A stretch of DNA of 64,000 nucleotides from an uncultured Planctomycetaceae bacterium (GCA_963815195.1 CAWFGE010000013.1:928001-992000); one strand, 5' to 3'. Shown: positions 8,589 through 11,497, counted from the first letter of the stretch. Numbers and translations are program-made. The notes: a model not told the origin generated them from the letters alone.

Positions 8589-8599
8589 GTGATGCGCTC

Positions 8600-8753
8600 C
8601 GCCGGGTGCCACTGCTGGCTTGCCCAGCCGTGCTTTGAGAGTAGGAGTTCGGTCCGAAATGTTGGCATAGGTTTCCGGCGAATTGCATCCGGGGAAAGAT
8701 CAAAAACTCTTGCAGTTCGGCACTGCTGGGCAAGCCAGCAGCGGCACCCGGCG
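8600..8753. repeat. Inverted REP pair (REPIN-like), left boundary of the island
   Basis: 8603-8633 CGGGTGCCACTGCTGGCTTGCCCAGCCGTGC is inverted at 8720-8750 with 2 mismatches. Each arm is itself palindromic. Confidence 0.85.
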
Positions 8754-9197
8754 TTCCGTTTGGTAGCTTTTGTATTCATGCCGGAGCATCTGCATCTTTT
8801 GGTTTATCCCGTGGGAGAGTCGGAGGTCAGCGATTTGCTCAAGGCCATCAAGAAACCGTTTTCGTTTCGGATCAAAGGGCTTCTCAAAGAACAAAACAGT
8901 CCGTTGCTGAACCGCCTTACGATTCGAGAACGCCCCGGCAAGATGTCTTTCCGATACTGGCAAGAAGGAGGAGGCTATGACCGCAACCTCTATTCGGAAG
9001 AAGCCGTGATGGCCGCCATCGATTACATCCACGCCAACCCGGTCCGCCGGGGACTCGTCGAACAGACCCGGCAATGGAAATGGTCCAGTGCCCGCTGGTA
9101 CGAATCCGAGGGCCAAGAGGTCGATCCTGACCTTTCCCAAATCCACGGTCTCCCTTCCGAGTTCTTTACGAACACGGATAAAACAAGAGGAGGTTGA
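8751..9197 (+). pseudogene. REP-associated tyrosine transposase (RAYT, Y1/HUH), C-terminal part only
   Basis: FRLVAFVFMPEHLHLLV (HUH motif), FRYWQEGGGYDRN, IDYIHANPVRRGLV (catalytic Tyr), WKWSSA. The upstream part of ORF 8589-9197 is translated REPIN DNA. Confidence 0.85.
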
Positions 9198-9208
9198 ACA
9201 AGGATTCG

Positions 9209-9285
9209 CACTGGCAACAAGTTGCCAGTGGCACCCGAAAAGTCCTATATAAATGACACCACCAACTGACAGTGCCACCCCGCCG
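9209..9285 (+). repeat. ~80-bp composite REP unit, copy 1
   Basis: CACTGGCA-ACAAGT-TGCCAGTG GCACCCGAAA, then an AT-rich spacer, then CTGACAGTGCCACCCCGCCG. Inverted copy at 11123-11199 and direct copy at 11425-11497. Confidence 0.85.
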
Positions 9286-9338
9286 AAATCGAGCAAAGTC
9301 GAACAATTAAACAGTTAACGTTGACTATAGGAGGCACG

Positions 9339-9638
9339 ATGTCCAACGAATGGCCCTTTGCTGATCAGAAGAACGTAGCTGTAATTACAGTGCGGCAAAT
9401 CGTTCATGATGGTCGCCCGATTTTACGCGTATCGCACGATATCGAGGATGGATGTTGGCAATTTCTCGAATGGGACTCACCTAAAGAAGAGCATGCAATG
9501 GTGGTTGCCCTCGAAAGAATTGTTGCCCTCGACCCATCCGTTAAAGAGTTAGCAGATTTGCCGCTTGGATGGAGAGCTATCCGGCGACAATTTGGCGATC
9601 CGTGGCATCGTGAGATTAATCCACATGTTCAAACCTGA
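9339..9638 (+). CDS. Small protein resembling Imm33/DUF2185 immunity-like family
   Basis: GGAGG ribosome-binding site, then MSNEWPFADQKNVAVITVRQI...PILRVSHDIEDGCWQFL...LDPSVKELADLPLGWRA. Confidence 0.6.
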   Translation: MSNEWPFADQKNVAVITVRQIVHDGRPILRVSHDIEDGCWQFLEWDSPKEEHAMVVALERIVALDPSVKELADLPLGWRAIRRQFGDPWHREINPHVQT

Positions 9639-9649
9639 AATCGAGTGAC

Positions 9650-9782
9650 GTAGGGCCGGCTGTGCCGGCCTTTTCGACGAAGGGAATCATACTTATGCCC
9701 AATTGGCGGCTGGGTATGCCGGCCATTTGGTGCGAGAAAAATCGTTGTGTCAAAAACAAAAGGCCGGCACAGCCGGCCCTAC
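9650..9782. repeat. GTAG-type REP inverted pair (REPIN-like)
   Basis: Perfect 25-bp inverted repeat GTAGGGCCGGCTGTGCCGGCCTTTT (9650-9674) and AAAAGGCCGGCACAGCCGGCCCTAC (9758-9782). Confidence 0.9.
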
Positions 9783-9796
9783 TCGGCTTTGAAAAT

Positions 9797-10069
9797 TTAT
9801 TTTCCACAACATGCACATCGAGTTGTTGTTACTTCATAGTAAGGTGATGCGTTGGCTTGCCTCCTTTTGTATCGGAAGTTGTCAATTATTTCTTTTGGAG
9901 TTGTTGGCTCACCTCCACCTTCGCAGCCTTGGAGTAGGCACGCTGCTCGGCAATCCTCACGGCAACGATTGTTATAGTATTCCAGAATCACCATAAGTCT
10001 ATTGACTTCATCCTTAGTCAGATTGTCTAGCACGTCATACGCTAATTTGCCAATACTATCAGGTGTCAT
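9797..10069 (-). CDS. Small Cys-rich hypothetical protein ending RCACCGK, coupled to the upstream gene
   Basis: 90-aa ORF in AT-rich DNA. Its ATG overlaps the last codons of 10059-10691. Confidence 0.65.
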   Translation of the reverse strand: MTPDSIGKLAYDVLDNLTKDEVNRLMVILEYYNNRCREDCRAACLLQGCEGGGEPTTPKEIIDNFRYKRRQANASPYYEVTTTRCACCGK

Positions 10070-10691
10070 ATATCACCCCGCAGTTAGAACAGGTTCGCCT
10101 GAAACTAAATCGCTGACGGTCGTATTCTGGCTTCCAATGTCTGTCACACGCCGAACATTTGAGTCCGAGGTTTGGATACTTTTTCGCAACGTGACGATAA
10201 CCTTCTCGTTTATATTTCTGCTTTAGCCTTGCGAGTTCATGTTTCCATTCTCCTTCGAGTTCTACCCACGCATTCTTTAACCGTGCAAATTTTGCGGAGG
10301 ACACATCTCCGTCAAAAAGCACTTGCTGAATGTCGGCAACTAAGCGATGTAGTTTTTTTGCGACATTGGATTGGTATTCGAGTTTGCCTCGTCTGCGGTC
10401 AACCAAGTTCCATAAGCTCAATGTGAGAAGCAGGAGGGAAATAGCACCAGCAATAATTGCTACCCACAGGTCAATTGTTTTGGACTTGTTTTCTATGGAA
10501 TACAGAATTGATTGTGTGAACAGGACATATATGGATAAAACCACAGAACACCAATCCAGCAACTTCATCTGGGTTTCCATGCAATGGACACTCTGGTCGT
10601 ATGCAAACTCCATCATTTCAAGACCAGCCACCCTTCTGCGTAGCTCATCTAACTGCCGTGATGTTTGGTCCGCTCCGCTATCATTGGCCAT
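10059..10691 (-). CDS. 2TM SLATT-like protein with C-terminal double CxxC (resembles mobilome CxxCx(n)CxxC proteins)
   Basis: ATG at 10691 after AAAAGGA. Two hydrophobic helices (LLDWCSVVLSIYVLF; LWVAIIAGAISLLLLTLSLW), a helical region, then CSAC-x18-CSNC. Confidence 0.7.
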   Translation of the reverse strand: MANDSGADQTSRQLDELRRRVAGLEMMEFAYDQSVHCMETQMKLLDWCSVVLSIYVLFTQSILYSIENKSKTIDLWVAIIAGAISLLLLTLSLWNLVDRRRGKLEYQSNVAKKLHRLVADIQQVLFDGDVSSAKFARLKNAWVELEGEWKHELARLKQKYKREGYRHVAKKYPNLGLKCSACDRHWKPEYDRQRFSFRRTCSNCGVIYDT

Positions 10692-10924
10692 GAGAGATGT
10701 CCTTTTCGTAACTCGTTGTTTGAGATTTTTCTTAACATTTGTACTCAAGTCAATGTTTATGCCATCAAAACCGCTATATTTGGTAAAATCATGCGATTTT
10801 TCCCCATCATCTTGTATTTTTACCGCCGTGGGGCCGCAGGATTCCTCGCTAAACTGCCTAGTCAACGCAAATTGCTACTGAAAACCAAGTGTCTACTGGG
10901 TGTTTATCCTAATGTAAACGTGGC

Positions 10925-10960
10925 AAGCCTTGTCAATCGTGATGACTGACAAGGCTTTTT
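10925..10960. promoter_or_regulatory. Inverted repeat (terminator- or operator-like)
   Basis: AAGCCTTGTCA (10925-10935) pairs with TGACAAGGCTT (10947-10957), followed by TTT. Confidence 0.45.
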
Positions 10961-10971
10961 AGTCCCATGAC

Positions 10972-11030
10972 TCATACTTATGCCCAATTGGCGGCGGGGT
11001 GGCATGCTCATGGCTTTGCATGAGCATGTC
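10972..11030. repeat. 24-bp direct repeat of 9687-9710 joined to a GGGGTGGCATGCTCATG...CATGAGCATG palindrome
   Basis: TCATACTTATGCCCAATTGGCGGC is identical at 9687-9710 and 10972-10995. Confidence 0.85.
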
Positions 11031-11122
11031 TTCGGGACGCTTGATGAAGCTGGAGACATTGCATTTTGCCCTGGTTCCGTTAATCATGTCGTCGGATTTT
11101 CAGAATCCACGTTTCCTCAAAT

Positions 11123-11199
11123 CGGCGGGGTGGCACTGTCGGTTTGGGTTGTTTTTTATGAGGATCTTTCGGGTGCCACTGGCAGCTTGCCTGCCAGTG
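11123..11199 (-). repeat. ~80-bp composite REP unit, copy 2 (inverted)
   Basis: Reverse complement reads CACTGGCAGGCAAGCTGCCAGTGGCACCCGAAA...CCGACAGTGCCACCCCGCCG. Confidence 0.85.
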
Positions 11200-11225
11200 T
11201 TTTCTAAGACGATCTTCCGAACGAC

Positions 11226-11369
11226 ATGAATCCCTCAATCCGAAGAACGGACCCCAGAGTGGCAGACCATCGAAAAACCGTGAAACACTACCATGAACCG
11301 GGGGATTGTCACGAGCTGACGTTTTCCTGTTATCGCCGGGTGCCACTGGCAGCTTGCCTGCCAGTGTGA
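11226..11369 (+). pseudogene. RAYT N-terminal fragment (47 codons, below the ORF-track cutoff)
   Basis: Hand translation: MNPSIRRTDPRVADHRKTVKHYHEPGDCHELTFSCYRR, running into a REP (VPLAACLPV*). HELTFSCYRR matches the first beta-strand motif of RAYT/Y1 transposases. Confidence 0.75.
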
Positions 11370-11497
11370 ATCGGATGCACCAATCGAGTTTTGAAACGTC
11401 CCCCGATTCCATGTTGCTGGAAAGCACTGGCAACAAGTTGCCAGTGGCGCCCGAAAGACTCTTAACAATAACCCGGACTGACAGTGCCACCCCGCCG
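11337..11497. repeat. Inverted REP pair plus composite unit copy 3, right boundary of the island
   Basis: CGGGTGCCACTGGCAGCTTGCCTGCCAGTG (11337-11366), then CACTGGCAACAAGTTGCCAGTGGCGCCCG (11425-11453), then CTGACAGTGCCACCCCGCCG. Confidence 0.85.

Follow-up and report, generated by a model that had tools for sequence, protein, structure and literature searches.

A split RAYT gene in a planctomycete genome as a probable remnant of a RAYT-cargo-RAYT composite built at REP ends

Background

A REPtron combines a RAYT (repetitive extragenic palindrome-associated tyrosine transposase, or TnpAREP), which is a class 2 Y1 HUH transposase, with repetitive extragenic palindromes (REPs) and the assemblies that they form, bacterial interspersed mosaic elements (BIMEs) and the doublets known as REPINs (PMC3333891, PMC3479197, PMC5581495, PMC6006769, PMC8266576). 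Class 2 RAYTs are recognized by an HUH motif and a Y---NP signature (PMC6006769). In Escherichia coli, TnpAREP cleaves at C|T sites that flank a REP and are set by guide bases 3 and 4, and it performs strand transfer, which can be to any 3'-OH (PMC3479197, PMC3333891); a change of guide shifted the cut site for one RAYT and not for two others (PMC8266576). RAYT genes are described as single-copy and non-mobile, with 7.7% recently duplicated overall and 0.8% in group 3 (PMC5581495), and their products have been called non-jumping (10.1101/2021.07.10.451892, PMC8266576, PMC3333891). The accounts consulted here report no evidence that RAYT genes move. Related TIRYT genes form TIRtrons, and R. baltica has been singled out for its abundance of these genes (Di Nocera 2013, PMC3733652). 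Here we analyze a 64,000-nucleotide stretch of an uncultured Planctomycetaceae bacterium (GCA_963815195.1 CAWFGE010000013.1:928001-992000), hereafter the window, in which a RAYT gene lies split and permuted around cargo genes at positions 8600-11497.

The locus is real but broken; rather than a working element, it most plausibly represents one outcome of capture linked to RAYTs and REPs, accompanied by self-duplication. The reading that we favor, with a probability of 0.55, is that of a trimmed remnant of a composite in which two direct RAYT copies enclosed cargo, and which arose as RAYT-type joins attached REP ends to fixed dinucleotides. Its interest lies in RAYT activity more than in the permuted gene.

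The source assembly, G000, comprises 8.87 Mb in 25 contigs (94.6% complete), and the window corresponds to G000:C13:928001-992000; feature coordinates are window positions unless a genome/contig prefix is given, and the REP family labels A, A2, B and C were coined in this analysis. Comparisons used a selected set of 16 loci, picked from the match lists of 15 genomes for nearby or partial matches, and a less selected survey of 160 loci, 86 of them with at least 2.5 kb downstream, which is biased to full genes and includes many short contigs. The L002 cargo open reading frame (ORF) and the L026 RAYT ORF were left out of family scans and alignment owing to frame errors. Read-derived data are low-depth assembled contigs of 5 public runs.

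Two halves from one RAYT lineage

Reading along the + strand, the locus consists of the RAYT C-terminal part (8751-9197), a REP, low-GC cargo, a second REP and the RAYT N-terminal part (11226-11338), so that the order, strand and coordinates of the original prediction are confirmed. The inward REP units and outer doublets that it described are likewise all present. The inner units are the native REP units of the window RAYT and both point towards the cargo: a downstream unit (9209-9285, +), made of a hairpin, a spacer and a CG-tipped tail whose outer end is joined to cargo, and an upstream unit (11123-11199, -). The cargo has a GC content of 0.41-0.48, compared with about 0.60 in the flanking DNA.

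The C-part carries HLH and YIHANP, corresponding to the HUH and catalytic Y---NP motifs of class 2, and scores 79.4 bits (E 2.4e-22) against NF047646 (REP_Tyr_transpos), the score of a fragment against a cut-off of 80, compared with E 0.062 for the IS200 model; the intact paralogue on G000:C11 reaches 99.8 bits. The 38-amino-acid N-part gives no Pfam match alone, but it aligns, as anticipated, to the N-terminus of full-length RAYT relatives (81% to a G017 protein). Relatives of the window RAYT occur almost entirely in records titled planctomycetes. As in other class 2 systems, the flanking REPs are inverted and dispersed through the genome; those of the window RAYT have GGTGC or GGTGG before the stem and end on CG, AG/CT ends being found only in the neighbouring GTAG family.

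Both halves match one copy in the genome, at G000:C15:625689-626097, which holds the N-part, a 24-amino-acid middle and the start of the C-part in canonical order before being cut off by a GTAG REPIN. The C-part differs from it at 2/223 nucleotides (G000:C15:625875-626097) and the N-part at 4/139 (11200-11338). The halves do not overlap, and the 72 nucleotides (24 amino acids) between them, present in the C15 copy, are absent from the window, in line with the predicted missing middle. This comparison supports the derivation of both halves from one recent RAYT lineage. Since the C15 copy is in normal order and intact relatives are alike, the native unit is REP-RAYT-REP with outward CG-tipped tails. 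The upstream REP unit occupies the same position in the C15 copy, and G003 retains a RAYT tail with a downstream REP unit like that at 9209-9285 (83%). The assembly yielded three pieces of this subfamily in 8.9 Mb but no intact member, and the locus in its present form is probably dead.

A side observation concerns L024:6860-7110 (G003:C9), a miniature derivative made of a REP hairpin, the last ~27 codons of a window-type RAYT and the downstream REP unit, which may be a REPIN caught forming from a RAYT unit.

REP ends join fixed dinucleotides

Comparison with parent sequences supports the proposal that the RAYT was cut at REP ends and that DNA was captured between such ends. At every joint whose parent is known, which leaves out that at 9285, the REP end shares CG with its target: GCG at 8751-8753, CGCCG at 11334, CG at 11123, where the parent is a family C REPIN, and CG at 10992, which lies inside the second copy of the GTAG REPIN interior. 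Across the genome, copies that carry the tail have CG as their last fixed bases in 25/28, 24/24 and 28/28 cases for three REP families. In the GTAG family, the AG position holds A in 35/37 copies and G in 34/37. The sequence beyond these bases is variable. AG is the complement of CT, the site cut by E. coli TnpAREP. By analogy, a CG cut site would require a guide ending in CG, as the tails supply.

Two of these ends belong to the outer doublets. The left one, an inverted doublet (REPIN) of subfamily A2 (8600-8753; folding z = -6.05), has a unique 86-nucleotide spacer with no match in G000 or in the loci compared, and its right end meets the C-part on the common GCG. The right one, an A/B-family REPIN (11334-11497; z = -6.75), is about 94% identical to three dispersed copies and shares CGCCG with the end of the N-part. 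The 15-base-pair direct repeat reported at the two outer doublets does occur twice in the window (0 in shuffles), but it is an ordinary REP tip and not a crossover site: it has 26 genomic copies, and the hairpins behind it belong to different REP subfamilies that are 74% alike. The calculation that joining the halves at this repeat leaves them one base out of frame was right.

Truncation of RAYT genes by REP ends recurs in G000 (C15, C20:247091 and C11:46253), while four other ends among the eight RAYT fragment ends inspected have no obvious REP and one is ambiguous. At G000:C11:46253 and L091:~5490, in two species, a GTAG-family RAYT C-part starts at the identical CT site with different REP ends joined. 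REP ends also stand next to other DNA. An internal 835-bp piece of a multicopy 1.8-kb insertion sequence (IS) has REP ends on both sides (G000:C21:253393-254227), just upstream of the C15 RAYT copy two near-identical 85-bp REP units enclose an Imm22 (DUF4284) gene (L001:5189-5539), and many REP clusters in G000 bracket small low-GC genes.

RAYT-cargo-RAYT composites in the same and related genomes

The composite reading is founded on the native REP-RAYT-REP unit, the CG/AG joints and intact composites in relatives. Taking a composite as two direct element copies around passenger genes, this arrangement is seen in G001, in G006 and at G000:C13:59-64 kb, and for the window it is inferred. The example in the source genome belongs to another subfamily: at G000:C13:58924-63872, a full, frameshifted RAYT is followed by 4 kb of cargo and a near-identical N-part with the identical frameshift. 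In G001, the closest congener, 675-bp copies (98.2% identical) surround 1.76 kb, and at a second composite 838-bp copies (97.1%) include 190 bp of a host gene duplicated with the RAYT. The insert of this second composite starts with the C-part of another RAYT and holds a P450 gene whose G000 orthologue lies elsewhere; one of its joins is at a REP tip on C|T. On G006:C122, RAYT-REP is followed by 1.6 kb of low-GC cargo, by REP-RAYT-N cut at CG by a REP end, and then by another REP-RAYT; because these pieces overlap in coverage, more than one copy is proven there. A core like that of the window and the composites is present at L235 and L219.

Multiple RAYT pieces on one strand were found at 6/16 loci of the selected set, and more than one piece at 7 of the 160 surveyed loci. 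Other arrangements include N, N and C pieces in normal order in G022 and pieces on opposite strands on G019:C247. Three other genomes also hold RAYT units, whole or partial, repeated head to tail in tandem with no cargo (L085:5963-7622; L057:362-960; L096:2466-3769).

A tblastn search of G000 returned 16 RAYT pieces (two weak), 7 with a near-identical partner, compared with the 7.7% of recent duplicates reported overall (PMC5581495), and 3 intact; the 97-99% identical RAYT copies in G000 and G001 depart from the single-copy state of domesticated genes. In a third G000 subfamily, an N-part with its REP has been copied from C12 to C20 (99.4%), and a 455-bp duplication is seen in the same genome. 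These copies suggest, at the level of sequence, that the RAYT itself is a duplicated target here, in conflict with the published non-jumping view, and that RAYT enzymes still copy themselves and pull in DNA. No composite was found at a second site that would point to movement as a unit: the window cargo is single-copy in G000 and has no DNA match among the stronger matches listed for 40 relatives.

A probable trimmed composite and its alternatives

The favored composite could have arisen in four steps. A RAYT would nick single-stranded DNA at a REP tip and at a target dinucleotide and join them one end at a time. The join at 9285 would then have linked the unit to foreign DNA, beyond which a second RAYT unit came to stand, either by insertion with a long target duplication or by tandem duplication. 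Further REPINs and a second cargo block would have been added, and two outer REPIN ends would finally have joined CG sites inside both copies, so that the first copy lost its N-part and the second its C-part. The canonical-order copy at 97-99% identity within G000 speaks for this reading.

Several points weigh against it. The halves are non-overlapping with a gap of only 72 nucleotides; among independent CG-cut pairs, any gap is expected in 51% and one of 0-80 nucleotides in 13.5%. Two separate trimming events are required, and the enzyme activity is only predicted from sequence. Long target duplication can arise without a transposase, as described for restriction-modification genes (PMC2853133). 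The CG counts are conditional on picking copies that carry the tail. Finally, composites are uncommon in the survey, where a direct repeat of at least 150 bp extends over the RAYT in 2 of the 110 loci that reach 4 kb, and the clearest parallels come from loci picked because of nearby matches.

A possible but less probable alternative is a true circular permutation: a single RAYT and its cargo would have been excised as a circle, by REP-end joins at the cargo ends, and would have re-entered via two REP ends at CG sites 72 nucleotides apart, on opposite strands, inside the gene. Both models need identical joins; all that separates them is whether the cuts at 8752 and 11334 were made as a coupled pair on a single molecule. 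The small gap favors coupled cuts, given its 13.5% chance under independent cutting; both cuts do lie at CG on opposite strands, the halves are equally near the C15 copy within noise, and excision followed by re-cleavage at other sites corresponds to a published BIME model (PMC3333891). Independent cuts are favored by the multi-copy composites, the frequent RAYT truncation here, the different REP subfamilies of the two outer REPINs and the absence of a pre-integration site, none being visible where the flanking genes are unlinked in congeners. A search for other layouts of C-part, cargo and N-part, as had been proposed, returned no second non-overlapping permuted case without a full copy among the 160 surveyed loci, in a survey that favors full genes. 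No circle joint occurs in the low-depth contigs, and an E. coli mobilome study saw no RAYT circles, as far as its available text reports (10.1101/2024.07.17.603846). Of the two models originally put forward, the two-copy composite has direct parallels, while the backing of the circle comes down to the 72-nucleotide gap. More speculative again is the combined proposition that planctomycete RAYT-REP units are an active one-ended capture and relocation system, in which REP tips are joined to guide-specified dinucleotides (CG here) and RAYTs copy themselves with foreign or chromosomal genes, and that this locus is a RAYT-cargo circle re-integrated via a cut in the transposase gene that it carried, which would make it the first trace within a genome of a REPtron intermediate that moves.

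It is unlikely that the halves came separately, a fragment begun inside one RAYT (C-part, REP and cargo) having joined the left REPIN and an unrelated N-part having arrived by later rearrangement between REP piles. Fragments that start inside a RAYT and are joined to a REP end at a common CT site do exist in G000:C11 and G001:C9, the C12 to C20 transfer is a case of a copied N-part with its REP, and the locus is a synteny breakpoint; but two pieces of one rare subfamily would have had to meet within 2 kb and co-oriented. Misassembly at repeats is very improbable, for although no public contig bridges 8752, 9285, 11123 or 11334 and the extra base that the adjacent DUF1015 gene has when compared with G001 may come from faulty assembly, the contig spans 1.2 Mb with repeats below 170 bp, the joints obey the dinucleotide rule of dozens of other copies, the 8600-8753 doublet is unique, exact pieces of the C-part and cargo occur in one run, and an exact 245-nucleotide public contig bridges the outer right end at 11497, the sole bridged boundary.

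Cargo and remaining features

The cargo is not one cassette but a pile assembled in several steps. Its first gene (9339-9638, +) encodes a 99-amino-acid Imm33-like protein, with a weak Pfam match (E 0.082) and PF09951 in 2/59 homologues. The sequence GAAATCGAG is repeated at 9285-9293 and 9638-9646, flanking this gene region and each time beside a REP end, and may be due to chance. A GTAG-family REPIN follows (9644-9788), which has many 97-100% copies in the genome and whose ends are set at AG; it is also this family that cuts off the C15 RAYT copy. Next come an ORF of 90 amino acids with a Cys-rich end and no family match (9797-10069, -) and a gene for a SLATT-like membrane protein with a CxxC-CxxC tail (10059-10865, -; the start may be 10691), which matches TIGR04402 below cut-off (E 5.9e-12) and SLATT weakly, and for which a large protein search gave no homologue at E 0.001. 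The pile ends with a short second copy of the GTAG REPIN interior (9684 onward) at 10969-10995 (+; 94% over 32 nucleotides), which ends in a REP-end joint, and a family C REPIN (10992-11124) that is 100% identical to two other copies and shortened at CG by the upstream REP end of the RAYT.

On the left side, the reading frame of the C-part stays open through the A2 REPIN, creating a 202-amino-acid chimeric ORF (8589-9197, +) that begins right after the DUF1015 stop and keeps the HUH and Tyr motifs, without the first strand and helix. The DUF1015 gene itself has one base more than in G001 near ~8385, which shifts the frame near the gene end and would reflect a pseudogene or an assembly error.

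Flanking genes and genome breakpoints

The DUF1015-DUF1501 interval of relatives had been proposed as the place to look for an empty site. The congeners examined have none, since in them the two flanking genes are not linked. In G001, whose identity in this region is about 88-90%, the two genes lie on different contigs with other neighbours, and a different REP/cargo pile stands behind DUF1015; the downstream neighbours of DUF1015 in G001, G002 and G003 differ from those in the window, and so do those of DUF1501 in G001.

Breakage of gene order is extensive in this pair of genomes. Against G001:C25:200001-600000 (L058-L077), G000 shows 94 unique segments in 67 blocks (median 2 kb, 86% identity), whereas gene order was better kept in three 20-kb comparisons within other genera, with about one, two, and four to five blocks. 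REPs as a driver of genome-wide shuffling were considered and found unsupported. With rough gene calls made here, repeats occur in 54/188 broken and 15/74 conserved gene adjacencies (p 0.21), and at 22/66 strict block ends, compared with 21/76 gaps inside blocks (p 0.47) and 345/1500 gaps across the genome (p 0.07). As breakpoints are not enriched for short repeats or IS, we do not attribute the shuffling to REPs.

Comparison with known systems

These genomes offer sequence-level footprints with testable rules: the dinucleotide cut, the end joined and what is duplicated. The footprints point to RAYT-linked capture of immunity-like, SLATT-like and ordinary chromosomal genes, and intact RAYT enzymes (G000:C11:44487-45059 and C12:908730-909293) and substrates were identified as suitable for in vitro test. 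We found no published account of RAYT duplication with cargo, in a search that covered few subscription journals.

Among described systems, long target duplication (Furuta 2010, PMC2853133) resembles the locus in placing accessory genes between long direct target copies; that work deals with restriction-modification genes, whereas in the present case a REP tip carries one join, and the RAYT unit is part of the duplicated target. With IS200/IS605 elements and composite transposons, the locus shares HUH chemistry, guide-directed target choice and two direct copies around passenger genes, but here only a dinucleotide is fixed and the ends appear to join independently. TIRtrons also have a RAYT-like gene between inverted units that are long, in part self-complementary, and arranged in dimers and clusters; the window tail, GGGGTGGC, is one mismatch from their GGGGWSAS consensus, and cargo, duplication and splitting are not among the TIRtron features described in the available text (PMC3733652). 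The REPtron likeness comprises the HUH and Y---NP motifs, a gene bracketed by inverted REP units, which also occur as dispersed doublets, ends fixed by a dinucleotide (AG/CT in the GTAG family, as for E. coli in vitro) and REP insertions inside RAYT genes, which are known for subclass 2.4 (PMC6006769). The locus departs from REPtrons as so far described in that three of its REP families end in CG, not CT/AG, nearly half of the RAYT pieces in the genome (7/16) have a near-identical partner, copies flank cargo, and insertions break the gene.

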